From: a virus
Lineage: Duplodnaviria; Heunggongvirae; Uroviricota; Caudoviricetes
Strand: one strand, 5' to 3'
Length of the DNA: 42,069 nucleotides
IMG/VR virus record: IMGVR_UViG_2541047817_000001
Span: 1 to 42,069 of that record
A model generated the notes under the pieces. It was not told the DNA's origin and did no database searches. It saw only the letters and a list, made by a program, of their open reading frames with translations. Below, one piece after another: positions 6,739-18,309 of the stretch; positions within the stretch are counted from its first letter, which is position 1; the number at the start of each line of letters is the position of its first letter. A program made the translations under genes and the position numbers.

Positions 6739-7413
6739 TTAGGCTTTGATTTTGTATCTTCTTGGTTTTCCTGAGAAAATCACTGTACCAATTATAGAGC
6801 AATTACCGTTGATCTTAATGTAAGGCTCAGGCCAGTTTGGGTTTAACGCTTTGAGATAACGCTGTGTCCCATCTTCTATCAACCTTTTGAAGGTGGTTTC
6901 ACCTGTATCGTGCATCAATGCAATAACGTCGTCACCGTGGCAGGCAGGTACTTCAGGATCGACAAAAATCATGTCTCCCGGGCGGTACTCATCAATCATT
7001 GAATCACCTATCACCCGCAAGATATAAGTCATTTCCCCACAGGGTACAGGGCAGGGATACGTTTCTGCTGTGCTCAAATCAACCTCAGAATATCCAACTT
7101 CTTTCCATGCTCCGGCCTGTACCCATGATATGACAGGGACTAATGTGATTTGTTTATTAGTGATTGAAACATCAGGTTTTTTTGTGATGTTCGTTGTCTG
7201 GTGTTCTTGATCGAGCCATCCGACAGGCAGGTCGAAACATTTTTCGATGTGTCGTGCCATGCTGTCACCGATATTTTTAGTAGCACCATCTCCCATAAAC
7301 CTGCTGGTCTGGGTTGGCTCGCGATCAATCATAGTGGCAAAGGAAGAATTCCCGCCAACACCATCTCTCAGTTTTCTGGCGTTAGACCGCCGGATGTCAT
7401 GGATTGTTTTCAT
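6739..7413 (-). CDS. cI: cI-like prophage repressor (LexA/S24 peptidase family, 224 aa)
   Basis: C-terminal S24 autopeptidase signature with the catalytic Ser in VIGDSM and the Lys in TFKRL. Positively charged N-terminal DNA-binding region. Divergent from a Cro-like gene across an operator-rich intergenic region. Confidence 0.85.
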   Translation of the reverse strand: MKTIHDIRRSNARKLRDGVGGNSSFATMIDREPTQTSRFMGDGATKNIGDSMARHIEKCFDLPVGWLDQEHQTTNITKKPDVSITNKQITLVPVISWVQAGAWKEVGYSEVDLSTAETYPCPVPCGEMTYILRVIGDSMIDEYRPGDMIFVDPEVPACHGDDVIALMHDTGETTFKRLIEDGTQRYLKALNPNWPEPYIKINGNCSIIGTVIFSGKPRRYKIKA

Positions 7414-10082: not shown

Positions 10083-10735
10083 TGAGTAATAAATATTGCC
10101 AGGCGCTGGCGGAACTGCGGAACAAACCAGCCCATGAACTGAAGGAAGTGGGCGATCAGTGGCGCACGCCGGATAACATTTTCTGGGGAATTAACACCCT
10201 GTTTGGCCCGTTTGTTCTGGATCTGTTCACTGATGGTGATAACGCCAAATGTGCTGCGTATTACACGGCGGAAGACAACGCGCTGGCGCATGACTGGTCA
10301 GAACGTCTTGTGGAGCTTAAAGGTGCTGCCTTTGGTAATCCCCCATACAGCCGCGCCAGTCAGCATGAGGGGCAATACATCACCGGCATGCGTTACATCA
10401 TGAAACATGCCAGTGCCATGCGTGATAAGGGTGGGCGCTATGTTTTCCTGATCAAAGCTGCCACCAGCGAAGTGTGGTGGCCGGAAGATGCGGACCATAT
10501 TGCTTTTATTCGCGGGCGTATTGGTTTTGAACTGCCTGCCTGGTTTATCCCGAAAGATGAGAAGCAGGTGCCGACAGGCGCTTTCTTCGCTGGTGCTATT
10601 GCTGTTTTCGACAAGACCTGGAAGGGACCGGCAATCAGCTACATCGGGCGCGATGAACTTGAGGCATGTGGTGAGGCGTTTCTGGTGCAGGTTCGCCAGC
10701 AGGCGGAAAAACTGGTCAGGGAGATGGCGGCATGA
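10082..10735 (+). CDS. Phage DNA N6-adenine methyltransferase (Dam-like, orphan)
   Basis: Contains the NPPY catalytic motif (AFGNPPYSRA). ATG at 10082 overlaps the upstream stop. No adjacent restriction endonuclease. Confidence 0.8.
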   Translation: MSNKYCQALAELRNKPAHELKEVGDQWRTPDNIFWGINTLFGPFVLDLFTDGDNAKCAAYYTAEDNALAHDWSERLVELKGAAFGNPPYSRASQHEGQYITGMRYIMKHASAMRDKGGRYVFLIKAATSEVWWPEDADHIAFIRGRIGFELPAWFIPKDEKQVPTGAFFAGAIAVFDKTWKGPAISYIGRDELEACGEAFLVQVRQQAEKLVREMAA

Positions 10736-11058
10736 CGACGTTAACTCAATGCCAGCAGCAGGTGCTGGATATGCTGATTTCTTACCAGAAAGAACGTGGC
10801 TTCCCGCCAACCAATCAGGAGGTGGCAACCATGCTGGGATACCGTTCAGTGAATGCAGCGGTGGAACATCTTCGCGCACTGGAGAAAAAAGGCGTCATCA
10901 CGATAAAGCGTGGCGTGGCCCGGGGTATCACTCTTCATACCGCGGTGAAGGACGACGACAGCGAGGCGGTCGGGATTATCCGCTCACTGCTTGCCGGTGA
11001 GGAAAACGCCAGGCTGCGTGCAACCCACTGGTTACATGAGAGAGGCCTGAAAGTATGA
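10732..11058 (+). CDS. LexA N-terminal DNA-binding-domain protein (108 aa; no peptidase domain)
   Basis: LTQCQQQVLDMLISYQKERGFPPTNQEVATMLGYRSVNAAVEHLRALEKKGVI parallels the LexA N-terminal winged-helix domain. The ORF ends before any S24 peptidase region. Confidence 0.7.
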   Translation: MTTLTQCQQQVLDMLISYQKERGFPPTNQEVATMLGYRSVNAAVEHLRALEKKGVITIKRGVARGITLHTAVKDDDSEAVGIIRSLLAGEENARLRATHWLHERGLKV

Positions 11059-13258: not shown

Positions 13259-13275
13259 TTTTGTGGAGAAAGTTG

Positions 13276-13623
13276 ATGCGTGATATGTATGAAGTGATGG
13301 ATCGTTGGGGAGCTTGGGCTGCTTCAGACAATAGCGGAGTGGACTGGCAACCGGTAGCCGCTGGCTTCAAGGGGCTTTTACCTCATGGCAAAAAGTCCCG
13401 GATTCAGTGTGATGATGATGAGGGGCTCATGATCGATGGGTGCGTAGCTAGATTAAGAAAGTACAAACCAGAAGAGTATGAGTTAGTTATAGCCCATTTT
13501 GTGGTAGGGATTTCATTGCGAGCCATTGCTAAGAAGAGAAAGTGTTCGGATGGGACTATCAGGAAAGAGTTGCAAACATCGCTTGGTTTCATTGAAGGCA
13601 TTGTTTGCACTCTTGCCTGTTAA
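13276..13623 (+). CDS. Q: Late-gene antiterminator Q (small Q family, 115 aa)
   Basis: ATG at 13276 (MRDMYEVMDRW...). Small Q-like protein in the conserved position ahead of the lysis genes. Confidence 0.7.
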   Translation: MRDMYEVMDRWGAWAASDNSGVDWQPVAAGFKGLLPHGKKSRIQCDDDEGLMIDGCVARLRKYKPEEYELVIAHFVVGISLRAIAKKRKCSDGTIRKELQTSLGFIEGIVCTLAC

Positions 13624-13644
13624 CTATTCTTAACTGTCTTCTAG

Positions 13645-14529
13645 TTATATTGGGCGCTTTGAATTCGATTTAAAGCGTCTTCCACTTATTCCAGAAACCC
13701 AAATGTCTTCCTCAAGAAAGTCAAGAAGGGCTTTTATTTCTTTTTTTGATGAAGGCATGACAATTTTCTCAACACCGCCAACTATTATGGTTTGTAAGGG
13801 GAAATTAACTTTAGCAGCTTCGGATTTAAACTTTGACATATTTTGGGGTGTTAGCATCCCAGTCTGATTTATTAGTGTTACTTTATTTCTTATCACTGTA
13901 TCTGCAACGGATTTTAGATCAAAACCTTGGGGAGTAGAAAATATACTAAGTTGACTAAATGCATTAAGTTCTTGGTCAGTAGCAGCAGAAAAATAGGACG
14001 ACATGTCAAAAATGCTTCTTAGATTAAAGAAACTCTTAAATCGTATTGTATCATTGATAATTATTGCAACTAGTTTATCATCAACATTAAAACCGATGCT
14101 ATTAGCTTTACTAAAGGTAGTTTTGCTTGCAAAAAGCTTTCCAAAGAATGATTTTGAGGTATCTAAGATTTGTTTTTTGTTGAAAGTTTGTAGTGCAATA
14201 ATATTGGGGTTTGCTGGCGCGTCAACACCAACAAATAATGCTTTAATATAACCAATATCAATTTGGCTAGGATCCCAGATAGGCACGGCGGTAGGCCTAT
14301 TGACTGCGTCAATCAGGCGTGCAGAATCAGTAAAGTTTTGTATTTCAAAACACTCACTATGTTTTGGTGTATAACCGGCATAGAATGGTATCATATTGTT
14401 ATGATGACTTTCAAAATATTGACGCTGTTGTTGGAAAATGGCCGTAACAGAAGTACTTGCTGTTGCATCAAGTTCGACTCTAACAATTCTCGTTGCAATT
14501 GTATTATCTATTACTGCAAAAAGTGCCAT
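13645..14529 (-). CDS. Hypothetical protein (294 aa); second gene of the AT-rich antisense island; candidate defence component
   Basis: ORF with no recognisable motif, visibly AT-rich, on the opposite strand to the late operon, 5 nt downstream of the membrane-protein gene. Confidence 0.6.
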   Translation of the reverse strand: MALFAVIDNTIATRIVRVELDATASTSVTAIFQQQRQYFESHHNNMIPFYAGYTPKHSECFEIQNFTDSARLIDAVNRPTAVPIWDPSQIDIGYIKALFVGVDAPANPNIIALQTFNKKQILDTSKSFFGKLFASKTTFSKANSIGFNVDDKLVAIIINDTIRFKSFFNLRSIFDMSSYFSAATDQELNAFSQLSIFSTPQGFDLKSVADTVIRNKVTLINQTGMLTPQNMSKFKSEAAKVNFPLQTIIVGGVEKIVMPSSKKEIKALLDFLEEDIWVSGISGRRFKSNSKRPI

Positions 14530-14534
14530 GGTTA

Positions 14535-15056
14535 TTATCCTTTAACATGTAGAAATGTGTAGTCTGTTAATTGAATAACTGTAAATTTGATATCTTTAAT
14601 ATCAGTAATAACTGATTTAGAAATCAATACAAAACCTACGCCGGTGTCATCTTCAGCTTCGTAAAATTTATAACCGATAAGTGACAATACTGGGTTAAAG
14701 TTATAGTTCTCGGAAAAGCTGATGTAAAATAACAATGATAAATAAAAGAATAACGCATATGCTTTATTTTCAGCAATAGAATCTGTTCCTAGGAGAGGGA
14801 ATAAATAGCTTAAGAAATAATTAGTTACTTCTTTGTTAGCGGGAGAAACTGAACTAATATTTTTTGTCAGAGGTTCAAGTTGTTTCTCAGCATATTGAAT
14901 CAGGCCTATTGCTAATAACCAACTTGCTATGCCAACGCATAAGCTATATTGCATCAGCCAAACCGTATCTTTTACATATCCAATAAAAAATAGAGTTGCG
15001 CAAACAGGTGCAATTGAGCTGGCTGTTAATAATAAGCGTGCTAATTTGTTCATCAT
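14535..15056 (-). CDS. Integral membrane protein (173 aa, about 4 TM helices); first gene of the AT-rich antisense island
   Basis: Hydrophobic segments at roughly residues 8-28, 36-56, 80-91 and 100-118. AAGGA ribosome-binding site ahead of the ATG at 15054-15056. Visibly AT-rich. Confidence 0.6.
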   Translation of the reverse strand: MMNKLARLLLTASSIAPVCATLFFIGYVKDTVWLMQYSLCVGIASWLLAIGLIQYAEKQLEPLTKNISSVSPANKEVTNYFLSYLFPLLGTDSIAENKAYALFFYLSLLFYISFSENYNFNPVLSLIGYKFYEAEDDTGVGFVLISKSVITDIKDIKFTVIQLTDYTFLHVKG

Positions 15057-15213
15057 GATATCCTTTGTACTGTTTATGCATACAGCACTTTACATCATGT
15101 ACTCCAAAGTATCTATCTTGTGAAGAATCTTACACTAAATACTACAGAAAAAGTTAACGCGTACGCAAAAAGTATTATATCGTGTTAAGAGTGGTTACTT
15201 TGCCACACAGCTT

Positions 15214-15246
15214 AAACCCGCCGTCGAGCGGGTTTTGTCATTTCTG
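15214..15246 (+). terminator. Hairpin plus T-tract; candidate tR' of the late leader transcript
   Basis: AAACCCGC-CGTCGA-GCGGGTTT followed by TGTCATTTCT, in the intergenic region upstream of the holin. Confidence 0.35.
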
Positions 15247-15387
15247 GGCCTTGGTATTCGTTGGGCTTGGTCTATCTAGTACTTATCCATTGGCTCGGCT
15301 TCTTTTACGTTTCCGCTTCTGGTTTGCGGTTCGTGGTACTCCCTCAATTTGCACCTCCTGTATCGGCGAGGTGAGAGATAACTACAA

Positions 15388-15714
15388 ATGCCTCATAACC
15401 CAAATACTTGGCTGGACTTGGTCCAGAGCTGGTGGCGTGGAGACACACCGCTGGGCGCAGTGATTATGTCGATTGTTATGGCTGGTTTGCGTATCGCCTA
15501 CTTTGATGGTGGTGGCGGCTGGAAGCGAAAAACGCTCGAGATTTTGCTCTGTGGCGCTCTGACTCTGACTTTTGCATCCGCGCTTGAGTATGTCGGATGG
15601 CCTAAATCGCTTTCTGTTGCCATTGGTGGTGGCGTTGGGTTGATCGGTGTCGATGCTATTCGTGGGGCTGCAATGAGAGTAATCGGTAATAAGTTTGGTG
15701 GCTCTAAGGAGTAA
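15388..15714 (+). CDS. Holin (lambda S-like class, 108 aa)
   Basis: Small membrane protein with about 3 TM segments and a charged C-terminus, immediately upstream of the endolysin. Confidence 0.75.
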   Translation: MPHNPNTWLDLVQSWWRGDTPLGAVIMSIVMAGLRIAYFDGGGGWKRKTLEILLCGALTLTFASALEYVGWPKSLSVAIGGGVGLIGVDAIRGAAMRVIGNKFGGSKE

Positions 15715-16639: not shown

Positions 16640-17248
16640 AAGAGGCAGATTGATCGTGTTTTCGAAGTGTTATACCACGCCCGTTCTGTTAATTTGGCAA
16701 AATCTGTTCTGATGCAATGAGTATCGAAAGATTTATTGGACTGGTTGCTTTGGTTATCACTGTTATCGCTGGAGTTGTTGGCCTAGGGCGTATCCGTGGC
16801 ACTAGTAAAAGAAGAGGTTAAAACTGCTCTGTTATACACTGAAGTTAACGCAGCGGCTAAGCACTCAGCAGCAGGACACCGTGTAGAGGCAACGGAAGAG
16901 GCCAGAAATATACAGCAGACTATTAACCATATTCCTGGTGACTCTGTTGAGCGCGGTATGCATAAGAAATACAAACGTACAATTTGAAGTGGTATATTTT
17001 TCTTGTTAGTAGATGAATATAATATACCACACAGAATACGATATAATTATTGCTCATGCTTACCTAAATATGAAAAACAATAAAGTTATAAGTAGACAAG
17101 TGTTTTGTTACTTTTAATAATTGATGTGATGTATATATTAAGATTGAAAAATTTAATCATTCTTTCCACATATAAATTAAGTGGTTCCCTTAGCTTGTCA
17201 TTTTTGATGATAAGTGAGAGAATATGAACATTATATGATGGAGATAAT

Positions 17249-17560
17249 ATGTCAAACATAAAAATCAAACAAGCTATTGAAAAGATTGCGGAGTTCAGAG
17301 CAGCATCTGCTGCGATGGCTGATGCTCACATGGTTCTTATTACAGAGCTATTGAACTCAATTGAGGATATCCGCAAAAACTCTGGTGATAATCTCTCTGA
17401 GTTTGAAAAAGGACAGGTTGCTCTCTACATAAAAATTAGCCCAGTTGTGAAAAATGGAATTTCGAGTATTGAAAAATATAATGAGTCTTTAAGTTCAGAC
17501 TATGTTGAGGCTATGAACTCCTTATCTAAAATTGCGGGAGGGAATTCAAATGTCGATTGA
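17249..17560 (+). CDS. Hypothetical soluble helical protein (103 aa); gene 1 of the AT-rich three-gene cassette
   Basis: ATG at 17249 preceded by GGAG. Visibly AT-rich. No recognisable motif. Confidence 0.55.
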   Translation: MSNIKIKQAIEKIAEFRAASAAMADAHMVLITELLNSIEDIRKNSGDNLSEFEKGQVALYIKISPVVKNGISSIEKYNESLSSDYVEAMNSLSKIAGGNSNVD

Positions 17561-17936
17561 AGATGTTGGAAGCATCCTTGATAGATTAAAAGTAGCCAGG
17601 ATCGAAAATAAAAAAATTGAAGAGTCAGCTGGAAAAGCAGAGGAAAATGCTGTTAACTCTAAGCATACTGATGGTAAAACACGAAGCGCCTTAACTATTA
17701 CGTTTCTCTGGTTCTTTTTTTGCCTTCTTATTTTTAGCTGTCTTTTTGTTCTTTGGTATAATAATTCTGTTGTGAATTGGGCTTTAGAGTTAAAGAGCAA
17801 AGGTGTTGATGATTACGTTCAATATTTAAAGCCACTCGAGCTGGAAAAGGTATTGTCAATAATGATTACTGCCCTTGGTACTTCATTAGGATTTATAATT
17901 GGGTATTATTTTAAGGATAAAGAAAATCATTCTTAA
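17550..17936 (+). CDS. Small membrane protein (128 aa, 2 TM); gene 2 of the AT-rich three-gene cassette
   Basis: ATG at 17550 preceded by GGGAGGG; overlaps the end of gene 1, suggesting translational coupling. TM segments ALTITFLWFFFCLLIFSCLFVLWY and VLSIMITALGTSLGFIIGYYF. Confidence 0.55.
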   Translation: MSIEDVGSILDRLKVARIENKKIEESAGKAEENAVNSKHTDGKTRSALTITFLWFFFCLLIFSCLFVLWYNNSVVNWALELKSKGVDDYVQYLKPLELEKVLSIMITALGTSLGFIIGYYFKDKENHS

Positions 17937-17981
17937 TATAGAGTTATCTCTAAAGATAACGAATTTTAATAGGAGGGCAGA

Positions 17982-18284
17982 ATGTCTGAACTGAATTATG
18001 AAGCAATAGGTCGCTGCAAAATCCTTAATGAAAAGATCAAAGATCTTCATGCTGAACGAATGAAAGCTATTGGTGATTTACGTACTGCTGTCTATGCCCT
18101 TCATCAGAAAGGGAATGTAAACCTCATCCCACCAGAAATTGTTGAATTCAACCCCCAATCGCTTACATCCCTTGTAGAGAAGGTTGGTCACTATGATGGT
18201 GAGCTGATGCGAGCTGTACATGAGTACAACAACTGGTGTGTAGAAGCAGGCGAGAAACCCGTAAAACTTATAAAGCTAGACTGA
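17982..18284 (+). CDS. Hypothetical protein (100 aa); gene 3 of the AT-rich three-gene cassette
   Basis: ATG at 17982 preceded by AGGAGGG. Visibly AT-rich. No recognisable motif. Confidence 0.55.
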   Translation: MSELNYEAIGRCKILNEKIKDLHAERMKAIGDLRTAVYALHQKGNVNLIPPEIVEFNPQSLTSLVEKVGHYDGELMRAVHEYNNWCVEAGEKPVKLIKLD

Positions 18285-18309
18285 AACAACAAATTTATGC
18301 AAATCATTA

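Follow-up and report, generated by a model that had tools for sequence, protein, structure and literature searches.

The stretch of DNA considered here (IMG/VR virus record IMGVR_UViG_2541047817_000001, Caudoviricetes; 42,069 nucleotides, called the window below) contains two genes, kwaA and kwaB, that encode a Kiwa anti-phage system. The reading favored here, at a probability of roughly 0.9, is of a self-contained cassette of ~1.5 kilobases (kb) in a lambdoid Escherichia coli prophage, placed between the stop codon of Q and the late-promoter region and served by a LexA-operated promoter. The system is an already catalogued one, not an undescribed one as a first-pass annotation had thought possible: PADLOC v2 has full-length models for the subtype, and RefSeq names the kwaB product ‘Kiwa anti-phage protein KwaB-like domain-containing protein’, while the kwaA product appears as ‘KwaA family protein’ in some records and otherwise as ‘hypothetical protein’. 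The gene pair itself is thus a rediscovery, one more Kiwa-carrying prophage; the sole new observation concerns regulation, in the form of a predicted LexA operator conserved in the kwaA promoter. The two genes are:

14535..15056, minus strand: kwaA, a 173-residue membrane protein (open reading frame, PADLOC, AlphaFold/Foldseek match to solved KwaA)
13645..14529, minus strand: kwaB, a 294-residue cytoplasmic partner with a DUF4868 domain (open reading frame, PADLOC, Pfam, Foldseek)

Identification of the pair comes from profiles and from predicted folds. The PADLOC KwaB model (PDLC00225) matches the 294-residue protein end to end (3.5e-150), and the KwaA model (PDLC00216) matches positions 1-172 of the 173-residue protein (1.9e-83); these were the sole defense families matched in a scan with an E-value limit of 1. 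Pfam PF16162 (KwaB, formerly DUF4868) scores 31.4 bits against a gathering cutoff of 26.3, over residues 108-281 of the larger protein, and homologues of the smaller one carry PF28043, which is named KwaA. The AlphaFold model of KwaB (clade alignment, pLDDT 81) finds only solved KwaB in Foldseek (9mrx_D, 9nyu and 9mtn; full length, probability 1.0, E 7e-7 to 2e-5, TM-score ~0.5-0.57), the best match being 9mrx_D (E=7.4e-7, TM-score 0.56) and the first match outside the Kwa proteins coming only at E=0.49. The KwaA model (clade alignment, pLDDT 77.7) likewise finds only solved KwaA (9mrg_A, 9mrx_A and 9mrr; probability 1.0, E 4e-6 to 3e-5, TM-score 0.59-0.69), with 9mrg_A best (E=3.6e-6, TM-score 0.67) and the first other match at E of at least 0.6. 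A broader KwaA family profile that includes the 173-residue protein matches the PDB entry ‘Kiwa protein KwaA’ at 3.8e-13; pairwise, the protein aligns with the solved type at 26% identity over 90 residues (E=9e-6). The first-pass annotation had proposed a PADLOC run, along with profile and structure searches against KwaA and KwaB; the PADLOC scan and the fold searches returned Kwa proteins only, and its guess of a diverged Kiwa-like pair is borne out by PADLOC, Pfam and the structure comparison alike. Its label of four transmembrane helices for KwaA fares less evenly: simple hydropathy gives only two strongly hydrophobic segments, whereas the predicted structure has helices at 2-28, 32-59, 76-96 and 98-114, with strands at 62-72 and 130-170 making up a beta domain, and superposes on the solved four-helix KwaA.

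The distance from canonical Kiwa is large, and a set of results weighs against the identification. Identity to solved KwaA and KwaB is 11-18% in structural alignments; BLASTP of KwaB against canonical KwaB gives nothing significant (E=1.2); the two KwaB profiles align only weakly in hhalign (E=0.093, 239 collinear columns); the NCBIfam KwaA equivalog NF041622 reaches 46 bits, under its cutoff of 100; and no NCBIfam model matches KwaB. PDB searches with the single sequences and the clade profiles of both proteins returned no Kiwa chain, the link to the PDB structures coming via fold comparison and the broader KwaA profile only, and the solved KwaA sequence, used as a query against viral contigs, found no match. 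PHROGs places both proteins in families of unknown function. With the NCBIfam cutoff missed, the pair falls outside the canonical equivalog subtype, though inside the Kiwa family: it is a genuine, strongly divergent Kiwa subtype, whose proteins of 173 and 294 residues are shorter than the ~195 and 315 of the canonical ones.

Canonical Kiwa (E. coli O55:H7 and ECOR strains; 9mrg, 9mrr, 9mrx, 9mtn, 9nyu; PMC11785009) has the same kwaA-kwaB operon and the same carriage on mobile elements. By the models it would also share the KwaA fold of four transmembrane helices plus a beta domain and the two-domain KwaB fold, which the published description gives as a Rossmann-like domain at the N terminus and DUF4868 at the C terminus (PMC11785009). 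Plasmid Kiwa (E. coli Nissle pMUT2, pLAO2 and K. pneumoniae pINF177.2) again shows the same gene order on mobile elements; there the proteins are longer than the prophage pair, and kwaA follows or overlaps a rep gene on small plasmids. RefSeq names KwaA and KwaB-like proteins on pMUT2 and pLAO2, but only a hypothetical protein and a DUF4868 protein on pINF177.2.

Within the cassette, kwaA comes first, as in all related loci examined, and kwaB follows on the same strand after 5 nucleotides (nt). A Shine-Dalgarno-like site (AAGGA or AAAGGA) precedes each gene, that of kwaB falling within the 3' end of kwaA, and a terminator scan found none between the two. By the 5-nt gap, the internal Shine-Dalgarno sequence and the lack of an intervening terminator, the pair is a predicted single operon. 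KwaA would have 172 residues if translation starts at the second ATG, at 15053. In DNA of 34% GC, intact open reading frames of 294 and 173 codons are far beyond chance expectation; each protein also has dozens of conserved full-length homologues.

The regulatory observation comes from the DNA upstream of kwaA. When these regions are aligned across five genera, only one block stays conserved, a palindrome similar to the LexA box of E. coli, for which the consensus is TACTGTATATATATACAGTA, with arms TACTGT...ACAGTA. The box in the window matches 16 of the 20 consensus positions and abuts the predicted -10 element of kwaA:

15068..15087, minus strand: predicted LexA (SOS) operator TGCTGTATGCATAAACAGTA; 11 nt separate its end from the kwaA ATG
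15087..15115, minus strand: predicted sigma-70 promoter of kwaAB, consensus-based; -35 TAGATA (15115-15110), 17-nt spacer, -10 TAAAGT (15092-15087)

The closest relatives keep this arrangement, with a -35 of TAGATA or TGGATA, 17 nt, and a -10 of TAAAGT, TAAAAT or TATAAT against the box; a predicted -10 set directly against such a box is the geometry of a LexA-repressed promoter. From this promoter, kwaA transcription would start ~7 nt downstream of 15087, within the box. A standard promoter scan gave no more matches than shuffled sequence and missed the proposed kwaAB promoter. The box is the only CTGT-N8-ACAG site in the window and the only CTG-N10-CAG site to score 16/20, the other 23 scoring at most 12. 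Against this stands the chance expectation of 0.48 CTGT-N8-ACAG sites per 42 kb: a lone palindrome is unremarkable, so that the case for SOS control rests on conservation among related sequences.

That conservation was surveyed in 61 loci from viral contigs (IMG/VR) with KwaA 37-100% identical to that of the window, 57 of which have upstream sequence. The box lies 11-25 nt before the kwaA start in 56 of the 57, the lone exception being cut by the contig end, and it is present in all 34 distinct upstream regions (34/34). Positions that the search did not force are nevertheless held: T1 in 31/34, A2 in 33/34, T6 in 34/34, A7 in 30/34, A15 in 30/34 and T19 in 32/34. The center and flanks of the box vary freely across the 34 regions, the center staying AT-rich. 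Over 441 kb of these loci the scores of CTG-N10-CAG sites are bimodal, with 213 sites at 14 or below and 70 at 15-19, and the kwaA site accounts for ~52 of those 70. SOS (LexA) control of kwaAB is predicted on these grounds.

More strong SOS boxes (17-19/20) were seen 3-4 kb from kwaA in related prophages, within their early regions (L034 8050, L035 8006, L040 7258, L058 5645, L059 5256 and others). By coordinate offset to the Klebsiella locus L011, the box at 8006 in L035 would lie ~20 nt upstream of a dinI homologue. Since dinI is a classical SOS gene, this box may serve as an internal positive control for the scoring.

A second and very divergent Kiwa lineage carries the motif as well. At four distinct canonical E. 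coli Kiwa types, which RefSeq annotates as ‘anti-phage protein KwaA/KwaB’, a CTG-N10-CAG box lies 67-72 nt before kwaA, just upstream of a -10-like element (TATGAT, TATGCT, TATACT and TGGTAGAAT at the four loci):

L161, 2502-2521: canonical E. coli box
L162, 1499-1518: canonical E. coli box
L163, 1500-1519: canonical E. coli box
L164 (O55:H7 TB182A), 1407-1426: canonical E. coli box; KwaA identical to solved KwaA at 136/136 aligned residues

An SOS-box-like palindrome in the promoter region is thus common to canonical and prophage Kiwa, but its placement differs: the prophage operator abuts the -10, 11 nt from the ATG, whereas the canonical box is ~70 nt upstream, near the -35 region. An SOS-type operator present in two very divergent enterobacterial lineages and placed differently in each suggests function rather than shared promoter ancestry.

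The pattern has clear limits, and they count against a general role for LexA. Plasmid Kiwa on pMUT2, pLAO2 and pINF177.2 is without any CTG-N10-CAG site in the locus, and 27 of 29 canonical-clade gammaproteobacterial loci are without a box; a box occurs only in Pantoea (L081) and Rahnella (L082), whose KwaA proteins stand nearest to the solved one. SOS control is therefore not a general Kiwa property. Distant KwaA relatives on non-gammaproteobacterial metagenome contigs have no CTG-N10-CAG box either, an absence that is expected if LexA motifs differ between phyla. The alphaproteobacterial LexA motif, for example, is GTTC-N7-GTTC. On one metagenome contig (L076 3900-4000, 58% GC), a distant KwaA split from a KwaB fragment by IS1595 transposases is preceded by GTTCGCTATTTGTTT, one mismatch from that motif, which may be chance. 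There is a physiological objection, too: a defense tightly repressed by LexA would be ill equipped to detect an infection at its first step. As Kiwa must be in place at phage attachment, some basal expression would be needed. It seems somewhat better than an even bet that Kiwa operons of Enterobacterales belong to the LexA/SOS regulon, with levels that would rise with DNA damage and be coupled to RecBCD/RecA activity and prophage induction.

The location of the cassette is the other theme. Its surroundings in the window are as follows:

13261..13623, plus strand: Q antiterminator (Pfam PF06530 Phage_antitermQ, 1.5e-45), convergent with kwaB
13625..15154: span of the AT-rich Kiwa cassette, as set by the GC profile and by aligning the prophage of E. 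coli LP50-1 (boundaries good to ~10 nt)
15155..15250, plus strand: candidate late promoter/terminator region (PR'/tR'-like), a conserved block that includes a hairpin and T-run (15214-15235)
15388..15714, plus strand: lambda-family holin, first gene of the lysis cassette (PF05106 holin S, 7.7e-25; RefSeq annotation of the same gene in E. coli H1827/12)

The first-pass annotation had described two antisense reading frames, 5 nt apart, between Q and the holin, in an island more AT-rich than its flanks and apparently acquired horizontally, as a candidate defense operon at a Q-lysis cargo site. Coordinates and the PF06530 and PF05106 matches agree with the layout; GC is 0.34 at 13624-15200, against 0.51-0.57 in the immediate flanks and 0.50 in the rest of the window; and, with the proteins identified as KwaA and KwaB, the reading as an acquired defense operon is supported.

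Among annotated relatives the nearest is E. coli H1827/12 (99.6% across the locus), where the genes are those of a lambdoid prophage: repressor, Cro, replication genes, RusA, KilA-N, DUF968 and Q precede Kiwa, and after it come holin, endolysin, spanin, HNH, terminase and a head of HK97 type. Prophages with and without the island were compared, as the first-pass annotation had suggested. Complete E. coli genomes yielded no empty site to a junction query from which the island had been deleted; the query matched 14 genomes in which Q and holin flanks ~90% identical to those of the window enclose another antisense two-gene cassette. Alignment with one of these, LP50-1, loses homology just past the Q stop (~13624) and regains it at ~15155, and the block 15155..15250 is ~95% identical between prophages with different cassettes. 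This block, whose hairpin and T-run lie 150 nt before the holin, probably holds the late promoter/terminator region, which would place the cassette upstream of the late transcript and not within it.

The alternative cassette (L002 2146-3146, minus strand; LP50-1 and 13 other genomes) encodes proteins of 246 (phrog_5814) and 87 residues (phrog_31842), of unknown functions. No SOS box was seen in this cassette. Pfam and PADLOC give nothing firmer than a marginal match to DndH (E=0.0032), and the pair is a candidate for undescribed cargo or defense.

One cargo of this map region, the stx genes of Stx phages, is transcribed together with the late genes from a position downstream of PR'. Kiwa shares with it the general region and the variable content between related prophages; it differs in being antisense, with its own predicted promoter, apparently upstream of the late-promoter block. 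The placement of the cassette at the Q-lysis site by the first-pass annotation stands, but the cassette would probably precede the late promoter, outside the late transcript: shared sequence resumes at ~15155, before the hairpin.

The same position is occupied in other genera. Citrobacter (82% KwaB identity), Klebsiella (76%) and Proteus (52%) have prophages in which a member of the Kiwa clade converges with a Q-type gene; the holin, lysozyme and terminase genes of these prophages belong to different families. Of 32 dereplicated IMG/VR loci, 26 have a convergent Q-type gene directly after kwaB (PF06530 Q in 25, Q-like DUF1133 in one). A Salmonella member of the clade (62% identity) is not in a prophage: it occupies an island bounded by an integrase, with a DUF87 ATPase and a methyltransferase for neighbors. 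The gap from Q to the late promoter is thus an exchangeable cargo slot in this lambdoid prophage group, and one Kiwa clade fills the slot across several genera.

Within E. coli the cassette is rare. Megablast finds it in 33 of 5,426 complete genomes, always chromosomal, single-copy, at least 99% identical, with both reading frames intact and in the Q-to-holin context; in the GenBank phage collection the same method finds no isolated phage that carries it. Full-length homologues at 46-86% identity are maintained across Enterobacterales. About half of Kiwa loci are on mobile elements, including roughly 198 prophages, and protection against phages and conjugation has been demonstrated for five other Kiwa systems (PMC11785009). 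None of the 33 carrier strains is named ECOR8, ECOR12, ECOR49, D9 or O55:H7 RM12579, the sources of the experimentally tested systems; apparently the prophage subtype lies outside that set.

Three other accounts of the locus deserve consideration. One accepts the genes as Kiwa and supposes that the palindrome is not a LexA operator at all, but part of the core promoter, the site of another regulator or a hairpin in the 5' untranslated RNA, with the genes expressed constitutively in the lysogen. A palindrome that is transcribed could fold as RNA; 0.48 such sites are expected per window by chance; the loci compared are related by descent, so that conservation is partly inherited; and the published Kiwa work used native promoters with SOS unmentioned (PMC11785009). 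Yet the arms fit the E. coli LexA consensus specifically, while the center varies and stays AT-rich; the box persists where the flanks have diverged past alignment; the motif recurs in a second Kiwa lineage at a different place in the promoter; and the same scoring picks the box that the coordinate offset puts beside a dinI homologue. The account is unlikely on this balance, though it is the strongest competitor of a LexA operator here. Expression from the prophage as a matter of course, which the first-pass annotation had assumed for cargo running against the late operon, becomes doubtful with a conserved predicted LexA operator abutting the predicted -10. The Kiwa paper is without mention of LexA or SOS (PMC11785009), and full-text searches of the searchable literature gave nothing relevant linking Kiwa or DUF4868 to LexA/SOS.

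The other two accounts concern function. The module might be Kiwa-shaped and do something else, as an exclusion or abortive system in the manner of RexAB, or as a factor in the lytic cycle of the prophage itself. Lambda RexA/RexB is indeed a prophage pair of a multi-pass membrane protein and a ~280-residue cytoplasmic partner that excludes other phages, and the general architecture of a small four-helix membrane protein with a partner of ~300 residues is common to both; the subtype here is very divergent from tested Kiwa, and its constant position beside Q could hint at a role in the phage cycle. But the folds of both proteins match solved Kiwa proteins only, the PADLOC scan matched only the KwaA and KwaB models, the Salmonella member of the clade has no prophage around it, and tested Kiwa systems are non-abortive; a different function is accordingly very improbable. 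Identity with RexAB in particular was considered and set aside, as PADLOC and the fold searches gave Kwa proteins only (presence of Rex models in PADLOC was unchecked). Rex acts by membrane depolarization and is abortive; Kiwa spares the cell. The notion of an abortive-infection system, offered in the first-pass annotation, is likewise at odds with the demonstration that Kiwa is non-abortive (PMC11785009). Lowest of all stands the idea of an inactive relic carried along with the prophage. The rarity of the cassette (33 of 5,426 genomes) and a host element that may be partly defective would suit it, but not the intact reading frames, at least 99% identical in all 33 genomes, the full-length homologues at 46-86% identity across Enterobacterales, or the conserved promoter-proximal operator.

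What the cassette would do, if it is the LexA-operated Kiwa system preferred here, can be sketched from work on other Kiwa systems. There, KwaA is a protein of four transmembrane helices with a cytoplasmic beta-barrel, and its tetramers hold KwaB dimers in a membrane supercomplex; the complex localizes to phage attachment sites and senses membrane distortion; KwaB attaches to ejected phage DNA by way of DUF4868, so that replication and late transcription stall; the cells survive, which sets the system apart from abortive infection; and KwaB is inhibited by lambda Gam, an effect that RecBCD buffers (all PMC11785009). The same mechanism is inferred for the prophage pair by homology, and the sequence here holds nothing at odds with it. 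Its KwaA tetramers and KwaB dimers would form a membrane complex, and binding of incoming DNA by the DUF4868 domain would block phage replication and late transcription while the cell survives. The cassette would bring its own weak sigma-70 promoter, with the -10 against the LexA operator; host LexA would hold kwaAB low in unstressed lysogens; and the SOS response would derepress it, at a time when the S24-type repressor of the prophage would also be cleaved and neighboring cells would be releasing induced phages. The window does encode an S24-peptidase repressor, at 6739-7413. No Gam homologue was found by Pfam among the early-left open reading frames, in a check that was not exhaustive.

The convergent arrangement has a further implication. 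The 21 nt between the stop codons of Q and kwaB hold no terminator-like structure by scan (fold z = -0.83, unremarkable). Early-right transcription past Q should then cross kwaB and kwaA in antisense after induction, and kwaAB transcripts should enter Q in antisense, as read from the gene order; transcriptional interference between Q and kwaAB is possible.

At 10732-11058 (plus strand), in the early operon, the window encodes a 108-residue protein that amounts to the DNA-binding domain of LexA without the S24 peptidase part. PF01726 matches this protein at 2.9e-19, and it aligns with residues 2-69 of the DNA-binding domain of E. coli LexA (1LEA, 6.9e-16); its recognition helix reads RSVNAAVEHLRAL, against RSPNAAEEHLKAL in LexA. 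Such a protein might act as a non-cleavable LexA mimic, re-occupying SOS boxes, the kwaA box included. A similar open reading frame adjoins DUF968/Q in the Klebsiella locus L011.

Farther along the window lies a second AT-rich island (16800-18300, plus strand; GC 0.31-0.36), between the spanin and the HNH/terminase genes. Its open reading frames all belong to PHROGs of unknown function:

17249-17560, plus strand: 103 residues
17532-17936, plus strand: 134 residues; weak PADLOC match to 2TM_IV (E=0.003)
17982-18284, plus strand: 100 residues

The whole island occurs in two of the 5,426 complete E. coli genomes, annotated as hypothetical proteins, and H1827/12 has a different gene in the slot. 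Tai defense genes have been described as frequent at this location, just ahead of the packaging module (PMC11364771).

If SOS control is true, Kiwa could protect cells, or the lytic cycle of the induced prophage, once repressor-based immunity is lost; the resident genome should be spared, since Kiwa acts on DNA entering at the membrane. Were the SOS box confirmed, DNA damage would become an input to Kiwa regulation, one that the searchable mechanistic literature does not discuss. Such an input might matter for the interplay with RecBCD and Gam that has been reported for Kiwa, and phage susceptibility assays on Kiwa strains could then depend on SOS-inducing conditions, for example exposure to quinolones.

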